The notes under the pieces are model-generated. The model had not been told where the DNA came from, ran no database searches, and was given only the letters and a program-made list of their open reading frames with translations. DNA of 58,446 nt from a virus. Taxonomy: Duplodnaviria; Caudoviricetes. The translations under genes were made by a program, and so were the position numbers. The stretch lies in the IMG/VR virus record IMGVR_UViG_3300025012_000101, positions 1-58,446 of that record; one strand, 5' to 3'. Positions 5,947-44,423 of this stretch are shown piece after piece. Each line of letters starts with the position of its first letter. The first letter of the stretch is position 1.

Positions 5947-6414
5947 TTAAAAAGGAATATCGTCATCGAAGTTGTCGAACGCACCAGCGCCTTGAGCAGG
6001 CGGATTATCTGGACGCGCGTTCCCTGCTGGCTTCGCTGCCGGAGCTGGGCGCGACTGCTCAGCTTGTTCGTGATCGCCGCCTTGCTGCCTGCTGCTCAGC
6101 ATCTGCATTTCGTTTACGATGATCTCGGTGGTGTAACGGTCTTGGCCCTCTTTTGTCTGATATTTTCGGGTTTGCAACTTACCTTCGATGTAGACCTGAG
6201 AACCCTTCTTCAGGTACTCTCCCGCCACTTCCGCCAGCCGACGGTAGAACACCAGGTTGTGCCATTCTGTCTTTTCCTGTTTTTCACCGGCCTTGTCTTT
6301 CCAGGTTTCGGAAGTCGCAAGCGTGGCGTTGGTCACCGCTTCGCCGTTGGTCATGTAGCGTGTTTCCGGGTCTTTGCCCAGGCGGCCTATCAGAATCACT
6401 TTGTTCACGCTCAT
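5947..6414 (-). CDS. ssb: Single-stranded DNA-binding protein
   Basis: [16 protein letters not shown]-terminus and acidic FDDDIPF tail. Confidence 0.97.
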
Positions 6415-7319
6415 ACTGCTCTCCTTAGTGCTTCAATAACATCGCAAGCCACAACCGGTACAACTGCATTGCCCAGCATGTGCATTGCGTCCTTTGCTCG
6501 TTCTGGAAGCAGGTAATGATGAGGAAACCCCATAAACTTCCTGCACTCTTCAACCGATAGCATGCGCATGCGGTCGCCATCTATAACTGCCCAACGGTCG
6601 CGCGTCGTGATTGTTCCAACTGGGCGGCTCAGGCTACGCCCACCTCGCTCGTTTCCGTAATAGGCGGTCAGGAATCTGCTGCCATGCACTTTGCGCCCTT
6701 CCGATATGCGCGCAAGCGTAGCCACGCTGCGCCCGGCCTTGTTAATTGAAGACCATCGCCCGGCGTTGAAGTCTATGATTTCAGCCGACCCGACATGCTC
6801 GCGCCGTGGCAGGTTTAGTTCGATAGGGTGCTTGCTGCGCGTTCCGACGATAAACAGGCGGCGTCTGTGCTGCGGAACTCCATGATCGGCAGCATCAATA
6901 ATCATGGGCGATAGAGCATAGCCAAGCGCACCCATAGCAGAACACCACGCCGGGTACAGCGACCACTTGGCGAACTCAGGAACGTTCTCTACCGTGAATG
7001 ATTCTGGCCGGTGATATTCGGCAGCGCTTACGACTGCCCATGCCGTGCTTCGCTGGGCATCATGGTGCGGACGCTCCTTTCCACGCGCTCGGCTATGGCC
7101 TTGGCATGCAGGTGATGCCATAAGTAGATCATGTGCAGGAATCTGCTTCCAGTCAGCTTGATGCAAATCTTGGCAGGCATGGATAGTTTCTGGATGGTTG
7201 GCCGCATGAATATTCACGGCAGCTTGCCAATGGTTTGCCGCCCATACAACCTTAACACCGGCCATTTTTGCGCCGGTCGAAAAACCGCCAGCTCCAGCGA
7301 ATAGATCAATTGCATTCAC
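6411..7319 (-). CDS. DNA cytosine-C5 methyltransferase
   Basis: Motifs [36 protein letters not shown] and LGNAV. Confidence 0.92.
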
Positions 7320-8365
7320 GCTATCCTCTCCGGGTAGCCGTCATGCAGCACGCCATCTAGCAGGCGTCCGGCTGCTTTCTTTCCAATACGTGCGACCGCT
7401 GCATCACCTTTTCGGAAATGCCCATCCGGCTCTCGCCCGTCTCCTTGCAGGTAGCGGACGTGGCCACGGCGCAAATCGCCGCCTTCATCGCCGCCAGCAC
7501 GCGCTTGATGCGGTGCCCACTCTCCCCACTGCTTGAACAGAAACGGTACGCCAGCCTCTGCACACTGATCGCGCAGGCTTCTTGCCCAATCAGGATGTAT
7601 CGGTCGAGCGTTGGGGCCGGATTCACCGCCACAAACAACCCAGTCTATCCTTGGGTGCCCTGGGAACTCACGTTGCAACATATCAACGCGGTTCCCGTCA
7701 AAAGGAACAGTGCATGACACCGCGCCGAGCATCGGCTCAACACTGATCCAGTGAACGGCTGCTGGCGTTTGCAGCAACAGCGGGATGCGCGCGTCGGCGG
7801 CTTCCTGATTCTCGACGCTAATGCCGAGCCACACATTCGGCAGGGGGAATTGTGTGAACACGCTTACCTTATTGCCCGGATCGCCGATGTGCGATAGGTT
7901 GGCATAACGCTGTGGCTCCATCGATTCGGCGAAAGCATCACCGGCACGTACCCACTTGTCACGGACGGCGCTCAACCGTAGATAATCCAGCATCCGCTCC
8001 GTCCTCTTCGTGAGCACCTGAAACGTGTGCTGCTTCGCCAGCGCCATCACCGCAAACACTTGGTCGATAAACTCATCCGGCACGCTCTCGTGAAACAGGT
8101 CGGACATGCTGTTCACGAACACCATGCGCGGGCGCTTCCATCGAAGCGGGTCTTGCAAATGTTCCGGCACCAGCTTGATGTTCCCATTCCAGCGCTTCGT
8201 TTCTGGATTGATCGTGCCTTCGTATGGCTGGCCAGCGCCGCAGAACCGCGCGGCCATGCTCTCGGCATAGCAGTTCATGCAGCCAGCGGAAACGCGAGTG
8301 CAGCCGCGCACTGGGTTCCATGTCTCGTCAGTCCAAGCTATCCCGCCGTTGCGCTGGTCAGCCAT
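7316..8365 (-). CDS. Phage Gp37/Gp68 (DUF5131) family protein, radical-SAM-like
   Basis: IAWTDETWNPVRGCTRVSAGCMNCYA, FVNSMSDLFH, WVVCGGESG and FLFKQWG. Confidence 0.9.
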   Translation of the reverse strand: MADQRNGGIAWTDETWNPVRGCTRVSAGCMNCYAESMAARFCGAGQPYEGTINPETKRWNGNIKLVPEHLQDPLRWKRPRMVFVNSMSDLFHESVPDEFIDQVFAVMALAKQHTFQVLTKRTERMLDYLRLSAVRDKWVRAGDAFAESMEPQRYANLSHIGDPGNKVSVFTQFPLPNVWLGISVENQEAADARIPLLLQTPAAVHWISVEPMLGAVSCTVPFDGNRVDMLQREFPGHPRIDWVVCGGESGPNARPIHPDWARSLRDQCAEAGVPFLFKQWGEWAPHQARAGGDEGGDLRRGHVRYLQGDGREPDGHFRKGDAAVARIGKKAAGRLLDGVLHDGYPERIA

Positions 8366-8936
8366 TTGCAGATTCCTTGCACACGAATGGCGCGATATTC
8401 GGCGATGTCCATCCGCCCGGCTTCTTCACTTTGCCGTTTGCGTCCTTGATGGCGACGAGGCCGAGGCCGTTGCAAACTCCGCAATCAACCAATCCTCGTT
8501 CATCGCTAAAATGATGCTTCCCGTTCCCGCATGAACATTCCACCAGCTTTGCCAGATTCGCCCGCGCCACTTCCCCGGCTGCGCCTTCCACGTCAGCACC
8601 TTGAGATAGGGCGCTTCCAATGGTTACCCAGGCAAGGTCGATATCTGCGTCAAGCATGGCGGCGCGGTCTGCAAGCTCAACGGCCTTGTCGAATTCTCCG
8701 ACCTTCATCCCCTGCGAAACGTCATGCAGAATGTCGCGCAAGTGCATCAGTCGCATCACTCCGGAAACATCTGCATCAGGTTCCAGAGATATTCCTTCAA
8801 TCAGTGCATCAACCTTCTCGCACATTTCTTCCGTCTGCAACCCGATATACAGCGCCGTCTGCCGCACGTTGTAGCGGTCTGTGGTGCATCCGATGGCTTC
8901 GGTGAACTGGCGTACTACTTTGATGATGTCGGTCAT
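8358..8936 (-). CDS. MazG-like all-alpha NTP pyrophosphohydrolase with inserted Cys-rich (Zn-ribbon) segment
   Basis: EEMCE, LDADIDLAWVTIG, EVARANLAK and KDANGKVKKPGGW motifs; CSCGNG...CGVCNG insert. Confidence 0.75.
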   Translation of the reverse strand: MTDIIKVVRQFTEAIGCTTDRYNVRQTALYIGLQTEEMCEKVDALIEGISLEPDADVSGVMRLMHLRDILHDVSQGMKVGEFDKAVELADRAAMLDADIDLAWVTIGSALSQGADVEGAAGEVARANLAKLVECSCGNGKHHFSDERGLVDCGVCNGLGLVAIKDANGKVKKPGGWTSPNIAPFVCKESANG

Positions 8937-10246
8937 GCTGCTTCCCCCTTGGTATTTTGGTTAATTGAAATTGATCGTGTTGATCCGGTGTGATTAAGCA
9001 TTGCACGATACGAGCGCAGCGCGTCGGTGCGGTCGCGCCCACCTGATTCGTGCTGACGTAGGCGCTGGTGGTAGCGGCTGCGGATGTAGCGCCCGGCGGA
9101 AATATGTTGCGGCCAGACGACATAACCCAAGAAAGGAATTCCCGCGCTGGCCGGCGCAAGTCGAATCTTGTGTGGATGGATGGTCAGGCCGTCGCTGGCC
9201 AGCTTGGCGGTGATCTGTGCGCATAGGGTTTGTAATTCTTCGTGCGACTCGCCCAGGATCACCATGTCGTCCACATAGCGGATGTAACGCCGGACGCGCA
9301 TGGTTTCTTTGATCCAGTGGTCGAAGTCGTTCAGGAATATGTTGGCGAATAGCTGGCTGGACAGGTTACCGATGGGCATTCCCTTGGCTGCCGTCTGTCG
9401 ATATAGCGTGGATTCATCGAACAGATGGTCGTAGCTGCTATCTGTTTGGAACGAGTCGATTAGGTTGACCAGCAGCACGCGCAGTTCGTGATCTCCGATG
9501 TAGCGCAGCACGCGCTCCTTGAGTAGGGCGTGATTGACCGAGTAGAAATATTTGCTGATGTCGAGCTGCAATACCCAAGTGGCATTATCGCTACGAGCGA
9601 ACTGCGCCAGTCTGCGCACGGCGGCATGGGTGCCTCGGCCTGGCAGGTTTCCGTAGGTATCGTGGATGAACTTCGGCTGCCAGATCGGCAGCAGGAAGCG
9701 GTAGAGCATCCAGTGGACGATGCGGTCTTTCATCGGAGCGTCCACCACATCGCGCCATTTTTTCTCGCGCACGGTGAATGTCTTGTATGGGCCGAAGGTG
9801 TAGCCCCGCTCGCGCAGTCTTTTCTGGATGGCGATCAGATGACGCAGCGGATCAGCAGAGAATCGCTGGATGCGCAGATTGTGAGATTTGTTCTTGCGGG
9901 TATTGAGCCAGCACGCGAACAGATTCGGCAGGCCGGTTAGGTGATGAAAGTCACTACCGCATTCCACTGCGCCACCCGTAGGCATCGCAGCGGTTTCCGG
10001 TTGGGCGTGTTGCCGTGCTTTTGGAACTTGCGCTCCGGGAGATTTTCGACCAAGAGTTGACCTTCCGTGGGTATCCCCAGCGTCTAGGCCGTTTTTTCTT
10101 GGGTCAGCGGAAGCCGATGTTGTCGTTGCGATTGCTGGGCTCGTAGTTGTTGAGATTGAAGACGCCCGCATTCGAGTCGGAACCCCAGCAGCCGCCCCGG
10201 ACGAGCGCATTACCAGACCTTTCAGAAAATCCCCCTCGTTGTTCAT
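8933..10246 (-). CDS. DGR-1 reverse transcriptase (catalytic core from about the ATG at 9985; frame open from 10246)
   Basis: KDRIVH, LQLDISKYFYSV, GMPIGNLSSQLFAN (DGR-type SQ motif), YIRYVDD and FLGY. Confidence 0.95.
   Translation of the reverse strand: MNNEGDFLKGLVMRSSGAAAGVPTRMRASSISTTTSPAIATTTSASADPRKNGLDAGDTHGRSTLGRKSPGAQVPKARQHAQPETAAMPTGGAVECGSDFHHLTGLPNLFACWLNTRKNKSHNLRIQRFSADPLRHLIAIQKRLRERGYTFGPYKTFTVREKKWRDVVDAPMKDRIVHWMLYRFLLPIWQPKFIHDTYGNLPGRGTHAAVRRLAQFARSDNATWVLQLDISKYFYSVNHALLKERVLRYIGDHELRVLLVNLIDSFQTDSSYDHLFDESTLYRQTAAKGMPIGNLSSQLFANIFLNDFDHWIKETMRVRRYIRYVDDMVILGESHEELQTLCAQITAKLASDGLTIHPHKIRLAPASAGIPFLGYVVWPQHISAGRYIRSRYHQRLRQHESGGRDRTDALRSYRAMLNHTGSTRSISINQNTKGEAA
10105..10219 (-). 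repeat. DGR-1 template repeat (TR1), 115 nt, about 22 adenines, AAC-rich
   Basis: Aligns without gaps to 11163-11277 and 16241-16355; all mismatches fall at TR adenines on the minus strand. Confidence 0.96.
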
Positions 10247-11091
10247 GGCTGTGCCTGTGTTGAACGGATAAGTCCGCCGACCAAGCGGCCAAGTTCAACG
10301 GCTAGACCCGCTCTGTGCTCAAAGTTGAGCGCAAGTATGCCTAGCCTTTGAGCCTGTGCGAGATAGTGCTTGATCAGGTCAATATCGGCGGAGAGAGACT
10401 TGAGTAGCTTCTGTTTGTTGTCCTCAAGGCCGTATGCCATAACACCGCGCATGATTCGACCGATGCAGATGCGTAGATTTTCGCCATAGGTGGTGCGCAA
10501 GTCGCGCGGCATCTTGATAATGTCTTGCAGGAGCTGCGTGTCCAGGTCTTGCGCCTTGGCCTTGAGCTGGAAACATGCGGCATCTGGGCTGGATAACAGT
10601 TGGGTGGCAGCAGCCTTGTTCACCTCGCCGCGTTGCTTGAGGTCATCGATCACATCTTGGATGACTTTCGTCGAAACGGATTCCAGTACCGAATTGTTAC
10701 CTGTCGGCTGGCTGGATACATAAACTGTGTGTCCGGTTGCCTGGTTTCCCAGCGCAACGACGTATGGAATGCCGAACTCTTCGACTACCGTCCACAACCT
10801 GCGCTTGAAATTTCCGACTGGAAATCCGATGCGAATATGCGGCTCGGTTGCAGCCCCGACGAGCTTGAGCTTGTACTTTTTCAGCGTAGCCAGCGCGTAT
10901 GCCGTGCGGTCATAGCCATGGAGGAAATTACCGGATTGCACCAATATCAAGTGGCCGGCGTGTTTCTCTTCCAGCTTCTGCGCGATGGTAGCTACCGGAT
11001 CAGCCTGCCCGAGTCCAGCCTCAATGCCCTTAAAGGCGCTGATGCTGAACCTGGTCAGTTCGTCGTTTGTTGGTGTCGGTATTTCTTGCAT
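10243..11091 (-). CDS. DGR-1 accessory protein: N-terminal MutS domain I-like region fused to a C-terminal Avd-like four-helix bundle
   Basis: HLILVQSGNFLHGYDRTAYAL...IGFP resembles the MutS mismatch-binding domain I. KMPRDLRTTYGENLR...ELGRLVGGLIRS resembles Avd. It lies between target and TR. Confidence 0.8.
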   Translation of the reverse strand: MQEIPTPTNDELTRFSISAFKGIEAGLGQADPVATIAQKLEEKHAGHLILVQSGNFLHGYDRTAYALATLKKYKLKLVGAATEPHIRIGFPVGNFKRRLWTVVEEFGIPYVVALGNQATGHTVYVSSQPTGNNSVLESVSTKVIQDVIDDLKQRGEVNKAAATQLLSSPDAACFQLKAKAQDLDTQLLQDIIKMPRDLRTTYGENLRICIGRIMRGVMAYGLEDNKQKLLKSLSADIDLIKHYLAQAQRLGILALNFEHRAGLAVELGRLVGGLIRSTQAQP

Positions 11092-11113
11092 GATGTTCCT
11101 AGTTAATTTTCTA

Positions 11114-11134
11114 GGTCACGGCTACGCCGCGACC
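11114..11134 (-). promoter_or_regulatory. Hairpin 3' of VR1 (DGR target-recognition element)
   Basis: Minus strand GGTCGCGGC-GTA-GCCGTGACC, 12 nt after the stop codon; conserved after VR2. Confidence 0.75.
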
Positions 11135-11146
11135 CGTGACCCGAGA

Positions 11147-11833
11147 TCAGAGACTCTTGGTGCAGCGGAAGCCGATGCGGTCGTGGCGATAGCCGGGCCC
11201 GAAGTAGACGAGATAGAAGACGCCCGCATCCGAGCCGGAACCCCAGCAGCCGCCCCGGACGAGCGCACGACCAGACCAGTTCCGCTCTCCGTCAGGCCGC
11301 CAGCCCATACCTTTTTCTTGCGATGGGTAGGGGGCAGTGGTCAGGCTTGGCGAATCCGCCTTGATGATGGTGGTCAATCCCAAGTCATTGCCCTGCACGT
11401 CGTCAAAAATCCACGAAAATACGTTGCCGTTTAGGTCGCAAACCTTCTCGCCATTCGATAGCGTCAACCAGCGGCGCTCCTTCGCATCGGGTGATTGGAA
11501 CGTACCAGGCTGTGCGCTCGAAACATTTCCTTTGCGCAGTCCACGGAATAGCTTGCCTTCGCCCACTTTCCCCTTAGTCCAGTTGCAATCCTGCTGGGCG
11601 GCATTAAGCCTGATCGCCAGTTCCTGTCTTTCAGTGACGAGCTGGCCGCCAATGTCTACGCACGCCGCTTTTGCTTCTTCAAAGCTGATGCGCACCCACG
11701 GTGTGCCATCCTCGGTGATAACTGCTTTCCCTCCAGCTCCCTTGCTGCAAGCGAACTGCCCATACTGGAATGCGGGAACGACAAGGCCGCTTGGTAGGGT
11801 AGTTTCTGGTACGGTGATGAATAGGTTTTTCAC
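11147..11833 (-). CDS. DGR-1 target protein A (FGE-sulfatase/C-type-lectin fold, C-terminal VR)
   Basis: GTG start at 11833 with GAAAGGGA RBS; PWVRISFEEAKAAC, DLNGNVFSW and RGGCW...IGFRC motifs. Confidence 0.9.
   Translation of the reverse strand: MKNLFITVPETTLPSGLVVPAFQYGQFACSKGAGGKAVITEDGTPWVRISFEEAKAACVDIGGQLVTERQELAIRLNAAQQDCNWTKGKVGEGKLFRGLRKGNVSSAQPGTFQSPDAKERRWLTLSNGEKVCDLNGNVFSWIFDDVQGNDLGLTTIIKADSPSLTTAPYPSQEKGMGWRPDGERNWSGRALVRGGCWGSGSDAGVFYLVYFGPGYRHDRIGFRCTKSL
11163..11277 (-). repeat. DGR-1 variable repeat VR1
   Basis: 15 of 115 mismatches to TR1, all at TR adenines (7 A>G, 5 A>T, 3 A>C). Confidence 0.96.
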
Positions 11834-11858
11834 AATATCCCTTTCGTTCTGGATTGAG

Positions 11859-12680
11859 TTATTTAACGGCGTACTTGCCAAGCATCGCAGGGATGTCGTC
11901 ATTTCCAATTGCATTTACGATGCACTCGGCGAACTGTTCTGCCATTTGCTCTTCGTGTTCTTCGATCTTGATAATGCGCAGATTGATGGCTGGCTTATCA
12001 GCGCCGGTCAGAATCCCAAGGCGCATCACAAAGGTGCGCTCGGCTATGTCCTTATACGGCACGCAAGTAAAACAAATCTCGGTAGGAAGCGGCTCCGTGC
12101 TAGATGCAGTGACACTTTCAAACGCGCTCCTGCTGGCGCTAAGTTGCTGCTCGGCGCTTTCCAGCTTACGCAGCGCTTCAATACTGATCTTGCGCACTGC
12201 CGCAATGGCCTTGTTCGCCGGAACATCAGCGCCGTCCTTGTGGCACGCAATCAAGTTTATCCAGTCTTCAAGAAATTCCGCGATGGCGGATTGCGGGTAT
12301 CCCTTTCCGTCAGCAATTTTGCGCAACGACTCATATGCAGCCGTGCGCTTCTGCTCCAGCCTGGCTGTGTTGTCTGCGTGACCTGGCTTTTCTTGCGTAC
12401 CTAGATTAAGCACGGCAGTTGCAATCATGCTTTCCGGCTCGATGAAGATTGCCGCGCCGAGTTCAGCATTTTTTTTCGCATAGCTTGCGAAGTCGCCGAT
12501 TACGCTCGTTACCATTGCTCCACGCAAACGGCGGCGCGTAGGCATGAACTTTTCGAGGTCGTGTATGTTGTGGTCAGAAGGTAGTGCGATAGCGCCGGTG
12601 GATTGACGATCTATTGCCGCGTTTGCAGCCTGAATTGCTTGAGCCTTTGAGAGTTCTTTTATTACGTCTGCGTCAAACAT
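11859..12680 (-). CDS. YfdQ / DUF2303 family protein
   Basis: LEKFMPTRRRLRG, AVLNLGT--PGHADNTA and AEFLEDW motifs; follows a YfdP-like gene. Confidence 0.85.
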   Translation of the reverse strand: MFDADVIKELSKAQAIQAANAAIDRQSTGAIALPSDHNIHDLEKFMPTRRRLRGAMVTSVIGDFASYAKKNAELGAAIFIEPESMIATAVLNLGTQEKPGHADNTARLEQKRTAAYESLRKIADGKGYPQSAIAEFLEDWINLIACHKDGADVPANKAIAAVRKISIEALRKLESAEQQLSASRSAFESVTASSTEPLPTEICFTCVPYKDIAERTFVMRLGILTGADKPAINLRIIKIEEHEEQMAEQFAECIVNAIGNDDIPAMLGKYAVK

Positions 12681-12706
12681 GATTTATCCTTATATTTAGT
12701 TGATAC

Positions 12707-13081
12707 TTATTTGTTTTTTACTTCGCCAGTTTGTTTGTCCAGAAAGCTCATCTGATTTTCTGGTGCAAGTGAGAGGCGACCATATTTGCCGACATGCAGA
12801 GGCGTTACGCGCTCCTCTTTCTCGCCTGCTGTTCCGTTCAGAGTAGGGCGCGTGAAGCTGAGTTGATGAGCGCAATGAACTTGCGTGGTTCCGGGGATGC
12901 GCTTGAAACTGAATTTAAGCGTCACATCTCCAACGCGGTCGTTGTCGATTACCGCCGCCGCAACCTGAGAAAGCGCCAGAGATAACTTGCGCTCTAACAC
13001 TCCTCCATCCAGGTCTTGAATGAAACCACCGACATCTGTTCCAGCATCACTTTCTTGTTGTGCTGCGGTTTTCTGATTCAT
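12707..13081 (-). CDS. YfdP-like phage protein
   Basis: FIQDLDGGVLERKLSLALSQVA and TPLHVGKYGRLSL; usual pairing with DUF2303. Confidence 0.75.
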   Translation of the reverse strand: MNQKTAAQQESDAGTDVGGFIQDLDGGVLERKLSLALSQVAAAVIDNDRVGDVTLKFSFKRIPGTTQVHCAHQLSFTRPTLNGTAGEKEERVTPLHVGKYGRLSLAPENQMSFLDKQTGEVKNK

Positions 13082-13111
13082 GCTCTTCGCTCCTTTTGTG
13101 AGTTAAATAAT

Positions 13112-13333
13112 TTACTTGGTAAGGTAGCCTGCAATGCCACGCGCTATTGCTGGCCTGCTCCAGTTCGCCATTGCGCGCAATTTCGTGCGCATCCAGCGTG
13201 GTCGCGCTTTAAGTAGCGCATCATGGATCGGGCGCAGCGATACCGGATTTTCAGGGTGCTTGTCGTTGTAGCTCTTGCTGTTGTTGCCGACTACATTGGC
13301 GTTCCTGATTGCAGTTATAGATTGCTTTTTCAT
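13112..13333 (-). CDS. Hypothetical basic protein
   Basis: ATGA-coupled to the upstream exonuclease gene. Confidence 0.55.
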   Translation of the reverse strand: MKKQSITAIRNANVVGNNSKSYNDKHPENPVSLRPIHDALLKARPRWMRTKLRAMANWSRPAIARGIAGYLTK

Positions 13334-15102
13334 GCTACCTTCCTTTCTTCGTGCTGAATGTCGCCACGGAACTCTTGCAGAATCCAGTCCAAAGCGGCTT
13401 CATTGGTTGTGCCAAAAGTGGTTGCAACAGCATCGAGCAGTTCGGCGCGATTGGGGCGGCGCGGCGAAATTGCCTGGGCGACGGATACCGGTGCGACGGC
13501 GTGCATCACGTCGGCAAGCGTAATGGCTCCGGCTTCTTCTCCTTGAGCAGGTAATGTTGCCGGTGACGGGAACGGCCATGTAGCGACCGGGAGGGCGATA
13601 GGTGCAGGCTTTGCGTCCTGCTCATCCTTGAGCTTTGCAGCAGCCTCTATAGCCGCTTTGGCGCGCTCTTCTTCATCCGCCTTTGCTTTGGCTTCTGCTT
13701 CTGACTTTGCGCGAGTGGCGGCTTCGGCCTCAATCTTGGCCTTGGCTTTGGCTTCTTCCTCAATGCGCATTACTTCGCGCTCAGCTTCCAGCTTTTCTGC
13801 TTCGGCGACTTGGTGATCTTTTATGCGGGTTGTGATCACCAGCTTAAAATCATCCATCGGCTTGCTGATAATTTGCGCAAGATCGTTGAACAGGAAACCG
13901 AACCCGGCGGAAGTTTCTTTGCACCACGTCAGTTTGGCGAGAATGTCCTTTGCTGCTGCATCAGCTGCAATCTTTCCGTTGGCCAGTGCAGTATCGACCG
14001 CATCCATCCATGCCGACACCAGACGCTTGCCTTTCATCGCCCCGGCAAAGTCTGGCTGCTGAATATTCAGACGAATTGGTTTGATCCAAGCTTCGAGCGC
14101 GGAGATGTGTTCGGAATAAGCCGTCTTGGCACCATTCAGGATCTCCAGCTTCTTCGCTTCCTTTTCCTTCTCGACATCCTTTTCAAGTTTTAGGGCGGTG
14201 ATGCGTAAATCTTCGTGCCATGCGTCTATCATGCGCGCCGCCGCACCTATGGTCAGAGTCTGCTCAAGCATCGCTTCCTTCGCGAGCATGAGCTTCTTGC
14301 CGGTCTCGCGGTATAACTTGGCGGCAGCCTCAGCATTGGAGAAATCCTGATCAGTTACGAGGCTAGTAGCGCGGACTGTTGCCAGCGAGGCCGCCAGCGC
14401 CTTTCCGAACTCGGCCATATTGTCGTCTGTGATTTCTCCCTTCGCGTGGACGAATAGGGCCGGAAGGGACAGGATCGCTTCGGCAGCAGGCTTCTCGATA
14501 ATCTCGACGTGCTGATAGTTTTCTCGGTCTTTGTTGAATTGCTCCCATCCTGCGCGGATGCGCTCGAACCAAACAGGATCAGGCAATATATCCATGCTGA
14601 CCATGCGCTCTTCGGTGCCGTCTGATACCGTGAATATCCAACTTTCTGCACCGGATACCATCAGGCATTGCTGTGGTTGTGCCATAAATTCATCTGGCAA
14701 TTCTTTCGCTGATACTGCGGCAGCAAGTGTTTCATTCCACTGTTTATGCTCCCATCCTTTGGTGCCCGACATGCGAAGACCATCGCACGAAGCTGAAGTG
14801 CGTCCGCGAGACAGCACGACCGGATATAGCTTGCTGCTTATCTGACGCTCGACGATTGGCCTAGCCAGCGCCTCTACCTCATGCCCGTAGTCAAGGATGT
14901 TTTCCTGCACCCATGAGCTGAACTCCTTTGTGATTCCGGATGACTTCATGCGCAAAAGTTCGGTGCGTGACGTTTTTTTGGATAGGCCAAGCATCGCAGC
15001 TGCTTCGCTTGCTCCATCATGGCTCATGCGGAATTCAATCCATTCAGGAGACCCCTGGATAAGTTCGTGCTCGATCAGCTCTTCTGTCATCATCTCGTCC
15101 AT
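13330..15102 (-). CDS. YqaJ-like (lambda exonuclease family) recombination nuclease with long coiled-coil C-terminus
   Basis: QGSPEWIEFR, GASEAAAMLG, GHEVEALAR, ASCDGL and WEHK motifs. Confidence 0.88.
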   Translation of the reverse strand: MDEMMTEELIEHELIQGSPEWIEFRMSHDGASEAAAMLGLSKKTSRTELLRMKSSGITKEFSSWVQENILDYGHEVEALARPIVERQISSKLYPVVLSRGRTSASCDGLRMSGTKGWEHKQWNETLAAAVSAKELPDEFMAQPQQCLMVSGAESWIFTVSDGTEERMVSMDILPDPVWFERIRAGWEQFNKDRENYQHVEIIEKPAAEAILSLPALFVHAKGEITDDNMAEFGKALAASLATVRATSLVTDQDFSNAEAAAKLYRETGKKLMLAKEAMLEQTLTIGAAARMIDAWHEDLRITALKLEKDVEKEKEAKKLEILNGAKTAYSEHISALEAWIKPIRLNIQQPDFAGAMKGKRLVSAWMDAVDTALANGKIAADAAAKDILAKLTWCKETSAGFGFLFNDLAQIISKPMDDFKLVITTRIKDHQVAEAEKLEAEREVMRIEEEAKAKAKIEAEAATRAKSEAEAKAKADEEERAKAAIEAAAKLKDEQDAKPAPIALPVATWPFPSPATLPAQGEEAGAITLADVMHAVAPVSVAQAISPRRPNRAELLDAVATTFGTTNEAALDWILQEFRGDIQHEERKVA

Positions 15103-15103
15103 G

Positions 15104-16159
15104 TTATTGACCTTCCTTTTCCCATGCGTCAATCTGGAATTGCTGTTCGTCGGTCAGGATCATCGAAGTTTTTGCGGTAGCGATGATTGCCTTTGCCTTT
15201 TTCTTTCCGCTACGCACCAGTGGCTCCCATTCTTTGCTCAGTTCAGCGAACTGCTCGGCGGTGCAGGCTTGCAACTCTCCCTTTCCGGCAGGCTTGCCGG
15301 TTTCTCCATTGCCTTGTTCTGCCTTGTTTTGCATCACGCTTTGCCAAGTCGCTTCGCCATCCTTGATCGCGCCGAAGATTCCACGCAGCGTCACGATTTG
15401 CGGCGGTGAGCATTTGGCTAGGTCATGCCCGAGATAGGAGGCCAGATCGGTCGCGGTAACTCCGATGGAAGAGAATGCGTCCACGATGCGCTTACGCTCT
15501 GCGTCAGGGTCTTTTGCCGCATCGTCCAAGCGAATCTTTTTGATGATCTCTTCAGCTTCATCGCATAAATCGCCTGGGATGATGCGCAGTCCGAGTGAAC
15601 GCATGGCCTTTGAGATCAACGCGCCGCGCTTATTGAGCAGGTCATCGTCAGTGCCTAGTACGGTGTAAACGTCCTTGTTGTAGCTGTTCTTGCGCACGCT
15701 GATGTAGGAGCCATCGCTATTCGGCTTGCTGCGTTCAACAGTTTTCGACACGCGCACGTCAAGCGGGTAGGTAATATTCGCTTCCAGATCGGTGACTGAA
15801 ACGCGGTGAACTTCTTTTTGCTCATCCTCGAAGATCATGGTGGTTTCGACCAGCACGTTCTTCATGCAGCGCAAGGCCACCTCAACAAAACGGATGCCCA
15901 AACCTTCAACGCCTTGTCCGATTGGCTTGATGTAGTAGGCGCTCTTGTTGTTGGCGAACGATGGCCGGCGGCATTCTTTGAGCAGTTCTTGCCGCACCGA
16001 ATCCATGTTGCGCGGATTGCGCATCGCCATGATGTAGCGTGACTCGACCATCGCCTTCGACTGTGCCGCGATCGCTGTTGATGCTGTTTCGACAACCGCC
16101 ATAGTCCGGCCTGTGCCGCCGAAATCTTCTTGTGTTGCCAGTGCTGTTCTATTGTTCAT
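15104..16159 (-). CDS. Putative single-strand annealing/recombination protein
   Basis: Directly upstream of the YqaJ exonuclease in the Red-like position; conserved-looking VEGLGIRFVE and LRIIPGD segments. Family not recognised with certainty. Confidence 0.55.
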   Translation of the reverse strand: MNNRTALATQEDFGGTGRTMAVVETASTAIAAQSKAMVESRYIMAMRNPRNMDSVRQELLKECRRPSFANNKSAYYIKPIGQGVEGLGIRFVEVALRCMKNVLVETTMIFEDEQKEVHRVSVTDLEANITYPLDVRVSKTVERSKPNSDGSYISVRKNSYNKDVYTVLGTDDDLLNKRGALISKAMRSLGLRIIPGDLCDEAEEIIKKIRLDDAAKDPDAERKRIVDAFSSIGVTATDLASYLGHDLAKCSPPQIVTLRGIFGAIKDGEATWQSVMQNKAEQGNGETGKPAGKGELQACTAEQFAELSKEWEPLVRSGKKKAKAIIATAKTSMILTDEQQFQIDAWEKEGQ

Positions 16160-41152: not shown

Positions 41153-42718
41153 ATGATTCAACTTTTCGCAAATAACGCCGCCAGCCTGCTGGCATCCAGC
41201 CTGACCAACGTAGCTACCAGCTTGTCGATTACGGCTGGTGCAGGGGTAAAGTTCCCGTCTCCAACCGGAGGCGATTATTTCAAGGCAACATTGTGCCAAC
41301 TTTCGGGCGTGGACGAGGTAAATTTCGAGATCGTGAAAGTGACGGCAAAATCAACCGATACTTTTACTATTGTCAGGGCGCAGGAAGGCACAACGGCGCT
41401 GGCATTCAATGCAGGCGACAAGTTTGAATTGCGAATCACTAAGGGAACGCTTGAGACGTTTGCGCTGAACTCAAGCGACAACATCAATAACGTTGGCATT
41501 CCAGGCGCAGCCGGGTTTGGCGTTGGCATTTGCCCGACGCTCCCAGCAGGGTTTGTTGCAATGTCTGGATACGATCAGCCAGGCACAGACAACTACGGCA
41601 ACTATCAGTACAGCGACGGCAGTATCATGGTCTGGATACCAGCCTTCTTTTACAAGTACGGCACCGGATCGAATGGTTTTGCAGTCAACATCGTGGATAT
41701 TAAGCCGGAATCGGCTTACGCGAATGAAGCGGCTGCCAATGCCGCAGGTTATGCGCTACATCGGGCATTTTACGATGGCGGCGCGGTGCAGCGCGGCGTG
41801 TTCGTTGACAAGTATAAATGCTCTGCCAATGCTGGCATCGCATCCAGCATCAAAAACGGCATTCCGATGTCGAGCAATTCTGCCAATAATCCGTTCAGCG
41901 TCTGCACTGCAAACGGCCAGACGCCGGCACAGTTTTACTACGGCGCTATTGCCGCCGCGAAGTCGCGCGGAAATAACTTTTTCCCCGGTAGTATGTTCAT
42001 TCGTGGCGCGCTGGCGCTGCTGGCGCTGGCACACGCGCAAGCCTCAACCGCAACGACGTGGTGCGCCTGGTATCACGCCACAAACAACTTCCCCAAAGGC
42101 TGCAACAACAACGCGCTTGGCGATCAGAACGATGCAGAACTGTTGTTTGTAACGTCCGGGTACTCAACCGCCAATAAAACCGGCAGTGCGAACGTGCTGG
42201 CCAAGACCACGCACAACGGTCAGAACTGCGGCGTGGCTGATGTGAACGGCACGTTATGGGAAGTGTGTCTGGGCATCACGTCCGATGCGACCAACTTCTA
42301 CGTCCTCAAAACCAGCGCGGCGATGAAGAACATCACATCAGGAAACACCGGCGCTACAGACGCATGGGGCGCTACCGGCATTACTGCGCTATACGACAGC
42401 CTCGGCGCGACCTACGGTGCGCTGACTGCATCCAGCACGGCAAAGTTATATGGCTCGGCAACACAGGTGTTTGATGCTGCAACCAGCGGAAATGCGTGGA
42501 ATGCAGCTGGCGCAGGAATTCCGCTGGTTGGTGGTGTTGGCGGAACGAATGCCTTTGGCAATGACGGTCTATGGGATTACAGGCCAAACGAGATGTGCCC
42601 GATTGCCGCGGGTAGCTGGAGCGCCGCGGCGGCCGCGGGGGCGTGGGCGTTGAATCTCAGCACCGTGCGTGGCAGCTCGGCCACCACCGTTGGGTTGCGC
42701 GCGGCCTTGTATCTTTGA
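41153..42718 (+). CDS. DGR-2 target: tail fibre / major tropism determinant-like receptor-binding protein with C-terminal CLec VR
   Basis: N-terminal virion anchor (FANNAASLL, EIVKVT, TIVRAQEGT); MVWIPAF, VDKYKCS and HNGQNCGVADVNGTLWE; VR at the C-terminus. Confidence 0.92.
   Translation: MIQLFANNAASLLASSLTNVATSLSITAGAGVKFPSPTGGDYFKATLCQLSGVDEVNFEIVKVTAKSTDTFTIVRAQEGTTALAFNAGDKFELRITKGTLETFALNSSDNINNVGIPGAAGFGVGICPTLPAGFVAMSGYDQPGTDNYGNYQYSDGSIMVWIPAFFYKYGTGSNGFAVNIVDIKPESAYANEAAANAAGYALHRAFYDGGAVQRGVFVDKYKCSANAGIASSIKNGIPMSSNSANNPFSVCTANGQTPAQFYYGAIAAAKSRGNNFFPGSMFIRGALALLALAHAQASTATTWCAWYHATNNFPKGCNNNALGDQNDAELLFVTSGYSTANKTGSANVLAKTTHNGQNCGVADVNGTLWEVCLGITSDATNFYVLKTSAAMKNITSGNTGATDAWGATGITALYDSLGATYGALTASSTAKLYGSATQVFDAATSGNAWNAAGAGIPLVGGVGGTNAFGNDGLWDYRPNEMCPIAAGSWSAAAAAGAWALNLSTVRGSSATTVGLRAALYL
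42593..42707 (+). repeat. DGR-2 variable repeat VR3
   Basis: 18 of 115 mismatches to TR2, all at TR adenines (11 A>G, 7 A>C). Confidence 0.96.
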
Positions 42719-42742
42719 TGCCTGAGCGATAGCGATGGGCAT
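42718..42742 (+). promoter_or_regulatory. Imperfect hairpin 3' of VR3, overlapping the avd start
   Basis: ATGCCTGAGC-GATA-GCGATGGGCAT. Confidence 0.5.
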
Positions 42743-43145
42743 TCACGATGAGGCGAAGCTGGATAAGAAATTCATGGAATTCGCCAAGTTGATGAACATC
42801 CACCTCAACCACTTCCCGAAGCATGAGAAGTACGGACTCGCGCTTGAAATCAGGCGTGCTGCCTATGAGATGTATGGCTTTATCGTAGAGGCGCAAAAGC
42901 GCTATCACAAGAAAACCGCAATGACCAACCTTGATACCCGGCATGAGCAGTTGCGCATGTTGGTGCGCCTTGCGTACACGCTGGGGTATTTTGAATTCAA
43001 GGATGGTCAGCGTGCAGAAAAATCACCATCCGAGTTAGGCGAGCATCGTTATCTCGCGCTGTCTCGGCTGGTGGATGAATTAGGCAGGATGATCGGCGGA
43101 TGGATTGTCGCCGAGCGCCTGCTTGATAAACGGGAGGCGTCTTAA
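42735..43145 (+). CDS. avd: DGR accessory variability determinant
   Basis: HFPKHEKYGLALEIRR...VDELGRMIGGWI; lies between target and TR. Confidence 0.92.
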   Translation: MGIHDEAKLDKKFMEFAKLMNIHLNHFPKHEKYGLALEIRRAAYEMYGFIVEAQKRYHKKTAMTNLDTRHEQLRMLVRLAYTLGYFEFKDGQRAEKSPSELGEHRYLALSRLVDELGRMIGGWIVAERLLDKREAS

Positions 43146-43146
43146 T

Positions 43147-43261
43147 ATGTGCCCGATTGCCGCAGGTAACTGGAACAACGCGGCGAACGCAGGAGCGTGG
43201 GCGTTGAATCTCAACAACGTGCGTGACAACTCGAACAACAACGTTGGGTTGCGCGCGGACT
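43147..43261 (+). repeat. DGR-2 template repeat (TR2), about 29 adenines
   Basis: AAC-rich ungapped copy of 42593-42707. Confidence 0.96.
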
Positions 43262-43400
43262 CGGTTTCACCTCACAGGCCGCATTTTGGTCATAGTGGAA
43301 TCAAGGGAGACGCTTTCCGGCGCGTGGTGAAAGCCACGGCGAAATCGGTATGCTTCCGCCTTTCTGGTAGGGCGGAAGATCGTCTCGAAGGTCTGGCGAC

Positions 43401-44423
43401 ATGAAGCGTATCGGCCATCTATATGAGCAGGCTTTTACCCGCGAGGCGTTGCTGATCGCATTTCACGCGGCGGCGCGCAACAAGCGCGGCAAGCGTGCTT
43501 GCTTCAACTTTGAAAAAAGCCTCGCCAGCAATCTGGACGCCCTCCACAACGAGCTGAGTAACGGGAGTTATAAGCCGCGCCCATACTACAGTTTCATGGT
43601 CTACGAACCGAAGCCGCGCCGCATCTATGCTCCGGCCTTCCGCGATCTGGTGGTGCAGCACGCCATCTATCGCGTGGTCGCGCCAATCTTCGAGTGCGGA
43701 TTCATCGACCAGTCGTTCGCCTGCCGCATCGGCTACGGAACACACAAGGCCGCAGATTACGCGCAGGCCGCATTACAGCAGATACCGCGCGACAGCTACA
43801 CACTCAAGCTGGACATCCGCAAGTTCTTCTACCGCATCGACCGCAGCATCCTGCGCACGCAGATCGAGCGCAAGATCAAGGATGCCCGCTTTGTTGACCT
43901 GATGACGATGTTCGCCGACCACGGCGAACCGGAAGGCATCCCAATCGGGAATCTACTGTCGCAACTCTACGCGCTGATCTACCTGAACCCGCTGGATCAC
44001 TACATCAAGCGCGAGCTGGGCATCAAGCACTACTGCCGATATGTGGACGATTTCGTGTTATTTGGTATCAGCCGCGAGCGAGCGCTGGAATGCCAGCGCC
44101 TGATCATTGATTTCATCCGGCGCGAACTCGGTCTGGAGCTATCCAAGTCTACCATCGCGCCAGTGGCGCGCGGCATCAACTTCGTCGGCTATCGCACCTG
44201 GGCTAGCAAGCGCTTCATCCGCCGCCACAGTCTAGGTAATTACCGCGTAGCGATGCGCCGTGGTGAGATTGAATCCGCTGCATCAATTCTTGGCCATGCA
44301 CGCCATACCCATTCGTTGCAGCACATGCTGCGTTATTCCAAGGAGCAGCACCATGCCAACCATTGTCGCCTACCGCAAATATATCGATCCAGAGATCACG
44401 CGCGAACTTCGCCTGCCTGTTGA
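43401..44423 (+). CDS. DGR-2 reverse transcriptase
   Basis: APAFRDLVVQHA, LKLDIRKFF, GIPIGNLLSQ, YCRYVDDF and NFVGY. Confidence 0.96.
   Translation: MKRIGHLYEQAFTREALLIAFHAAARNKRGKRACFNFEKSLASNLDALHNELSNGSYKPRPYYSFMVYEPKPRRIYAPAFRDLVVQHAIYRVVAPIFECGFIDQSFACRIGYGTHKAADYAQAALQQIPRDSYTLKLDIRKFFYRIDRSILRTQIERKIKDARFVDLMTMFADHGEPEGIPIGNLLSQLYALIYLNPLDHYIKRELGIKHYCRYVDDFVLFGISRERALECQRLIIDFIRRELGLELSKSTIAPVARGINFVGYRTWASKRFIRRHSLGNYRVAMRRGEIESAASILGHARHTHSLQHMLRYSKEQHHANHCRLPQIYRSRDHARTSPAC

Follow-up and report, generated by a model that had tools for sequence, protein, structure and literature searches.

The window analyzed here is the whole of IMG/VR virus record IMGVR_UViG_3300025012_000101, an entry of 58,446 bases with an estimated completeness of 97%. 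This phage record holds two diversity-generating retroelements (DGRs), seen as two RVT_1 and two bAvd matches, and our subject is the sole accessory gene of the first of them, DGR-1. We found that its product, a 282-aa protein here called P0001, is very probably a natural fusion, in which a module resembling the mismatch-binding domain I of MutS (MSL module) is joined by a helical linker of ~35 residues to an Avd bundle, and which is the single DGR-1 accessory protein.

Parts of the DGR-1 accessory protein

The fusion gene lies on the minus strand, with its ATG at 11091 and its stop codon at 10243-10245. A preliminary description of this DNA had reported a 282-aa protein here, and the open reading frame list and translation agree with it; the strings that it quoted (LILVQSGNFLHGYDRTAYAL, GFP, MPRDLRTTYGENLR and ELGRLVGG) are all present in the protein. 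The gene and its parts are as follows (pI, isoelectric point).

10243..11091, minus strand: MutS-domain-I-like/Avd fusion gene (P0001), 282 aa, from the open reading frame list and translation; 376 homologues of ~280 aa
11017..11091, minus strand: residues 1-25, acidic N-terminal extension (pI 4.4), of low model confidence and partly conserved
10699..11016, minus strand: residues 26-131, MutS domain I-like (MSL) module, basic (pI 9.5 over residues 26-135)
10918..10926, minus strand: codons F56-L57-H58, placed opposite F36-Y37-E38 of E. coli MutS, in which F36 stacks on the mismatch and E38 is the Glu of GxFxE
10588..10698, minus strand: residues 132-168, acidic linker, mainly one long helix (141-167) in the AlphaFold2 model
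10246..10587, minus strand: residues 169-282, Avd-like four-helix bundle, basic (pI 9.3)

The likeness to MutS emerged most clearly from predicted structure. The AlphaFold2 model of the full-length protein, made with 33 relatives, had a mean pLDDT of 78.7 and a pTM of 0.50, and residues 1-140, modeled on their own, were compared with all 48,161 representative PDB chains. Only four chains reached a Z of at least 8, each over its mismatch-binding domain I, and all four belong to the MutS family: Taq MutS (11.2), MSH3 (10.8) and MSH6 (9.5 and 8.6). No other chain exceeded 4.8. The match to Taq MutS covered its residues 8-117, with 102 positions aligned at a root mean square deviation (rmsd) of 3.2; residues 26-128 set against Taq MutS 9-118 gave Z 12.5 (VIA). 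In a Foldseek search of the PDB, MutS headed the list (1nne_B, E 3.5e-4, 99 columns, 20% identity). These comparisons bear out the earlier suggestion of an N-terminal mismatch-recognition domain, and residues ~26-131 are predicted to have the MutS domain I fold. No Pfam match to MutS_II-V was found in the fusion, where the linker and the Avd bundle follow residue ~131.

At the sequence level the likeness is far fainter. Neither phmmer with P0001 nor a profile of its close relatives gave a match among PDB sequences, and a broader profile reached Taq MutS at E 0.14 only; rows for the SIGIRR TIR domain in the PDB sequence search (E 0.1-1) were taken as noise. Comparison by hhalign with a small alignment of MutS domain I sequences, from E. 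coli MutS and four host MutS proteins, gave E values of 0.0042 and 0.0007, at probabilities of 8% and 26%. Among the divergent relatives, P0161, a full-length member of 263 aa that is 29% identical to P0001 (phmmer E 5e-5), clears the Pfam MutS_I cut-off (23.1 versus 20.6 bits) and also matches bAvd (5.9e-5), and the fragments P0183, P0184 and P0185 clear the MutS_I cut-off as well. In the ESM Atlas, small MutS_I proteins made up 27 of the 30 clusters nearest to residues 26-135, which we treat as a lead only.

The hhalign register, although of low probability, places G54-N-F56-L-H58 on G34-D-F36-Y-E38 of E. coli MutS and RIGFP on the MAGIP of MutS, and P0161 gives the same register. The preliminary reading that the Phe of the motif is kept and the Glu replaced by His thus recurred in every alignment that we made, F56 and H58 falling on F36 and E38. 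Among 129 full-length relatives, F56 and Gly54 are each kept in 128, and at position 58, 124 have His, 4 have Gln and 1 has Gly. Divergent members carry Ala, Cys or Gln there, so His58 itself deserves no weight. As far as the alignments tell, the stacking Phe is under strong selection, and the Glu has been lost without a fixed substitute. The MSL module is also the best-conserved segment of the protein, with 36 of its 106 columns at least 95% conserved; mean pairwise identity is 0.71 there, 0.65 in the Avd part, 0.56 in the linker and 0.49 in the first 25 residues. Those first 25 residues show the pattern PT.EE ... KGIE.GLGQ.DP, for which we found no match, and the acidic extension could be a docking peptide.

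The C-terminal part was matched, over residues ~175-280, by three Avd profiles: Pfam bAvd (PF22296) on residues 187-277 (20.1 bits, E 9.6e-4; curated cut-off 40), NCBIfam DivGenRetAVD (NF033474; 32.6 bits, E 7.6e-8; curated cut-off 80) and PHROG 3206 (E 1.7e-7), which is annotated "Avd protein of DGR". Matches that are significant yet below the curated thresholds point to a divergent Avd-like domain. In the AlphaFold2 model, four long helices occupy residues 169-279, and residues 170-281 superimpose on the Bordetella phage BPP-1 protein bAvd (8ub8_C) with Z 15.2 and an rmsd of 1.9 A over 110 aligned residues at 16% identity; against bAvd chain 4dwl_D the Z was 14.6. Since unrelated helical bundles score Z 13-14 in the same structure list, the fold alone is unspecific, and the Avd assignment rests jointly on fold, profile matches and gene position. 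It upholds the C-terminal Avd of the preliminary description. That description had proposed HMM (hidden Markov model) or structure searches against MutS_I and Avd: structure supported both parts, whereas the MutS_I model did not match P0001 and the Avd models matched below threshold. An internal start at M194 that would yield a free Avd was considered and rejected; residue 10 of bAvd aligns with approximately residue 170, which places M194 within the bundle.

Comparison with characterized proteins puts each half beside a known one. Like bAvd (4dwl, 8ub7 and 8ub8; Z 14.6-15.2, rmsd 1.7-1.9 A), the C-terminal part is a basic, ~110-residue four-helix bundle encoded between the target gene and the template repeat (TR) and reverse transcriptase (RT) gene; it differs in its low identity, its scores below the curated cut-offs and the 168 residues added at its N terminus. 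With domain I of MutS, MSH6 and MSH3, the fusion shares the fold, the G-x-F of GxFxE and the GxP block. Unlike MutS, it is devoid of domains II-V, and with them of clamp, ATPase and MutL signaling, has His in place of Glu38, and lies beyond the reach of the Pfam model.

DGR-1, its relatives and known accessory proteins

On the minus strand, DGR-1 has the order target gene with variable repeat (VR), hairpin, fusion gene, TR and RT.

11147..11914, minus strand: target gene, 255 aa, with an FGE-sulfatase/C-type-lectin-fold C terminus (Pfam FGE-sulfatase, 26.6 bits; PHROG)
11155..11278, minus strand: VR, at the 3' end of the target gene
11114..11141, minus strand: GC-rich hairpin, computed folding energy -10.8 kcal/mol, z -3.26
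10097..10220, minus strand: TR, beginning ~25 nt past the fusion stop codon
8933..10246, minus strand: RT open reading frame as listed, with an RVT_1 domain at 9119-9763 (E 1.3e-27)

TR and VR differ at 16 positions, and all 16 differences sit at TR adenines (16 of 23 adenines changed), from which we conclude that DGR-1 has been active. The hairpin follows directly after the VR and the target stop codon, ~20 nt upstream of the fusion start codon, and occupies the position of a DGR target-recognition hairpin. The listed RT frame opens with an ATG directly past the fusion stop codon and runs through the TR, and similarity of related RTs to it often starts only at about residue 48-98. M88 (ATG at 9985) is probably the true RT start, in which case a spacer of ~111 nt would follow the TR.

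A word-indexed search returned 376 homologues of the fusion, nearly all of 280-285 aa among the 120 matches listed. An exhaustive search of 50% representatives returned 43 proteins, 15 of them at E<=1e-30; neither a plain MutS nor a plain Avd was among them. We located 23 loci in GTDB genomes, in Gallionella, Aromatoleum, Thauera, Undibacterium, Duganella, Pseudoduganella, a Lysobacteraceae metagenome-assembled genome and others, and 61 loci on IMG/VR contigs; because the two sets overlap, as identical lengths of some contigs show, these counts are not independent. Each of the 22 whole GTDB loci carries one to four copies of a target gene upstream, and 19 carry a near-full RT downstream. One of the remaining three ends at a contig edge, and the other two hold RT fragments only; these two (L007 and L009) keep an intact fusion gene and are probably decaying DGRs. 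On the IMG/VR contigs a target gene was found upstream in 59 of 61 loci and an RT downstream in 56 of 61, with less than 150 nt of room in four of the five misses. The family is conserved, phage-borne and widespread in a betaproteobacterial phage lineage.

It is nonetheless rare per genome, occurring in 2 of 401 sampled genomes of one host's order, that host included. Three of five related phage records, the closest ones, have two RTs and the other two have one, so the fusion-type DGR also occurs alone. A tblastn search of the phage genomes deposited in INPHARED gave no match, and a fold search of BFVD matched Avd-like and small MutS_I phage proteins separately, with no convincing two-domain match. 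Searches for stand-alone forms gave 8 hits of <155 aa and 31 of 46-200 aa, which were mostly family fragments or contig-end pieces, and showed no split form. In P0183, a metagenomic protein of 169 aa, an N-terminal MutS_I-like domain of the P0161 subfamily runs straight into RT-like sequence (RVT_1 E 0.007); this single member sequence may stem from a deletion that fused accessory gene and RT, or may be an artifact of assembly.

Both halves of P0001 have counterparts among published DGR accessory genes, as the preliminary description had stated of MutS-like genes beside some DGRs. In the survey by Wu et al. (2018, PMC5758913), MSL is reported as a new accessory class, present in 16 of 372 DGRs, with proteins of 112-283 aa that are neutral, always accompanied by avd and mostly from Bacteroidetes, and eight entries of Table S1 have the order TG-MSL-AVD-TR-RT (TG, target gene), with MSL and avd as adjacent separate genes. 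Msl is also named in three Bacteroides elements (10.1101/2024.11.15.621889). Like the fusion, these proteins (architecture D of PMC5758913 and the Bacteroides Msl) are described as a small MutS-domain-I-like module without an ATPase in a cassette that also has Avd, and in the eight table entries the place of MSL directly upstream of avd matches the order of the modules within the fusion. Compared by description, the two differ in that the published MSL is a separate gene product of pI 7.2, mostly from Bacteroidetes, whereas the module of the fusion is joined to Avd, has a pI of 9.5 and comes from betaproteobacterial phages and prophages.

One member of the fusion family had in fact been catalogued before. 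The AVD of Sideroxydans lithotrophicus ES-1 (CP001965.1_1972697_1973665) is our family member P0021, 281 aa long and 77% identical to P0001, and its DGR resembles DGR-1 in having a target-accessory-TR-RT order and an FGE-sulfatase target. In Table S1 of PMC5758913, as available, it is entered as a plain AVD (8871..9716, 846 nt), with the MutS-like part unmentioned, and the words "fused" and "fusion" are absent from the main text and supplement of that survey in their accessible form. The label "Avd" in DGR catalogues may conceal further fusions of this kind. Automatic annotation already knows the architecture: in the ESM Atlas, one cluster of 54 members (230 aa) bears the name "bAvd-like/MutS domain I domain-containing protein", and 98% of its members carry both Pfam families. 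It represents another, more Pfam-like lineage than the fusion (feature score 0.89, a lead only). Our literature search, which left subscription journals outside its scope, returned no paper describing an MSL-Avd fusion. In P0001, two DGR accessory modules, each already known, are fused, and we found no description of them as a fusion in the literature searched.

Possible role of the MutS-like module at the heteroduplex

That MSL and avd genes, separate and adjacent in Bacteroidetes, are fused in another lineage suggests that the two products act together, and their covalent joining speaks for MSL acting on the RT-Avd particle. Published work describes bAvd as a pentamer of which two protomers are touched by the Bordetella RT (bRT) and one protomer contacts the template:primer duplex. 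If the Avd part of P0001 likewise formed a pentameric barrel, bound RT and spacer RNA, and were required for cDNA synthesis, up to five Phe-wedge DNA-binding modules would be displayed per RT particle, each without MutS clamp, connector or ATPase domains. Pairing of the mutagenized cDNA with the VR would produce a densely mismatched heteroduplex, here with 16 mismatches in ~116 bp. The MutS-like modules might bind this heteroduplex and stop the host MutS from restoring the parental sequence. Acting in cis, they would in effect shield the heteroduplex from mismatch repair: they would bind without signaling for repair, since they lack both the signaling parts of MutS and the Glu of GxFxE.

The preliminary description had likewise suggested that the fusion could tether a mismatch binder to the RT complex, so as to recognize the cDNA:VR heteroduplex or protect it from host repair; this is plausible and agrees with published data. 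Loss of mutS has been reported to raise VR mutagenesis 5- to 10-fold in Bacteroides ovatus (10.1101/2024.11.15.621889), and an engineered E. coli DGR was supplemented with a dominant-negative MutL (2026 preprint, 10.64898/2026.07.21.739853). All five host genomes with the fusion that we inspected carry a canonical MutS, in open frames of 864-960 aa. Because these hosts have MutS, and because MutS reverses DGR heteroduplexes, we favor shielding. A putative mismatch binder, tethered to the RT and competing with MutS, may hide the cDNA:VR heteroduplex from the host, an account that we put forward as tentative. Its bolder form, a retroelement-encoded device against mismatch repair in which the five Phe-wedge domains of an Avd pentamer coat the heteroduplex and exclude host MutS, is conceivable but doubtful.

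Several observations weigh against this account, some of them against the MutS assignment on which it builds. The sequence similarity of P0001 to MutS is weak; Pfam MutS_I (PF01624) gave no match at E<=1 on P0001 or in the six frames of the record, and at the same threshold it found only the canonical MutS in the five host genomes and missed their fusion genes. The pTM of the full-length model leaves the mutual placement of the domains unfixed. The Glu of GxFxE is absent, and what replaces it varies in divergent members (His, Ala, Cys or Gln). An isolated domain I would be without the clamp domains with which MutS keeps its grip on DNA, so that its affinity would need a presumed five-fold avidity. 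Most DGRs do without a MutS-like module, including DGR-2 of the same phage, in which 18 of 18 TR/VR differences are at adenines. The reported genetics point in the same direction: mutS was not required for Bordetella phage retrohoming (PMC5758913), and its deletion was without effect in one E. coli reporter, which carried an 18-nt insertion that is, according to its authors, no MutS substrate. The literature searched contained no paper testing MSL function.

The faint sequence evidence (the hhalign probabilities of 8-26% and the profile E of 0.14 for Taq MutS) is what one would expect had the resemblance to MutS arisen by chance or convergence, P0001 being simply a long Avd, as the ES-1 member was catalogued. 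We consider this highly improbable in view of the clear gap in Z between the MutS-family chains (8.6-11.2) and all others (4.8 or less), of the four relatives that clear the MutS_I cut-off, P0161 among them, and of the MutS_I clusters of the ESM Atlas. A structural add-on is a less extreme possibility: the module might keep the domain I fold, have lost nucleic acid binding, and serve stability, RT docking or regulation. MSH2-type domain I is not known to contact the mismatch, and the missing Glu and the failure of Pfam MutS_I to find the protein would fit such a role. A near-invariant stacking Phe and neighboring Gly, a nearly invariant RVGFP block aligned with MAGIP and a basic pI suited to nucleic acid binding speak against it, and we think it improbable.

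If the module does bind nucleic acid, its substrate need not be the finished heteroduplex. It might grip an irregular duplex on the RT-Avd particle during cDNA synthesis, aiding priming or extension past mispairs; the candidates would be a template:primer duplex with nonstandard pairs, or an RNA:cDNA hybrid mispaired opposite template adenines. The fusion does tie the module to Avd, the module is basic and better conserved than Avd, and the missing Glu is in keeping with a substrate that is not mismatched DNA. To our knowledge, however, MutS domain I binds DNA duplexes and not RNA or RNA:DNA hybrids, and bRT-Avd is reported to carry out adenine mutagenesis without such a module, as DGR-2 presumably does too; we therefore regard a role in synthesis as unlikely, if less so than a purely structural one. 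We give no more credence than to the latter to an aid in homing, by which the module would sense the first mismatched cDNA:VR pairing or the distortion of the VR hairpin, retain the RT particle, together with its cDNA, at the target, and raise integration. The tethering logic would be that of the shield, a GC-rich hairpin does lie directly behind the VR and close to the fusion start, and the mechanism of cDNA integration is unsettled in the published work that we consulted. Since one accessory gene serves targets in one to four copies and up to kilobases away, such an aid would have to act in trans, and nothing separates it in silico from shielding of the heteroduplex.

MSL has been an accessory class of DGRs since the 2017/2018 survey, and host MutS is reported to cut DGR output 5- to 10-fold (10.1101/2024.11.15.621889). 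With its one accessory gene, DGR-1 is a compact system in which to ask whether DGRs bring their own shield against mismatch repair. If they do, the module would be a natural counterpart of the dominant-negative MutL that engineers have added, stand-alone MSL would also be part of the RT-Avd particle, and the module could improve engineered DGR mutagenesis without turning the whole host into a mutator.

DGR-2 and the surroundings of DGR-1

The second DGR of the phage is of the classic kind and occupies 41153-44423 on the plus strand.

41153-42718, plus strand: target gene, tail-fiber-like, carrying the VR at 42593-42707
42735-43145, plus strand: Avd, 136 aa (Pfam bAvd 63.1 bits, E 3.9e-17)
43147-43261, plus strand: TR
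43401-44423, plus strand: RT

The 136-aa Avd that the preliminary description had placed in DGR-2 was thus found. It has only the stretch ELGR..GG in common with the Avd part of the fusion (BLASTP E 0.005).

DGR-1 itself is embedded in an early/recombination block at 6411-16159 on the minus strand, with the following neighbors.

15104-16159, minus strand: phrog_3657 protein, 351 aa
13330-15132, minus strand: YqaJ-like exonuclease domain protein
11859-12680, minus strand: DUF2303 protein
8358-8936, minus strand: nucleotide-pyrophosphohydrolase-like protein
7316-8365, minus strand: DUF5131 protein
6411-7319, minus strand: C5 cytosine methylase

The phage recombinase module beside DGR-1 recalls the combination of an annealing protein with repair suppression in engineered DGR systems.

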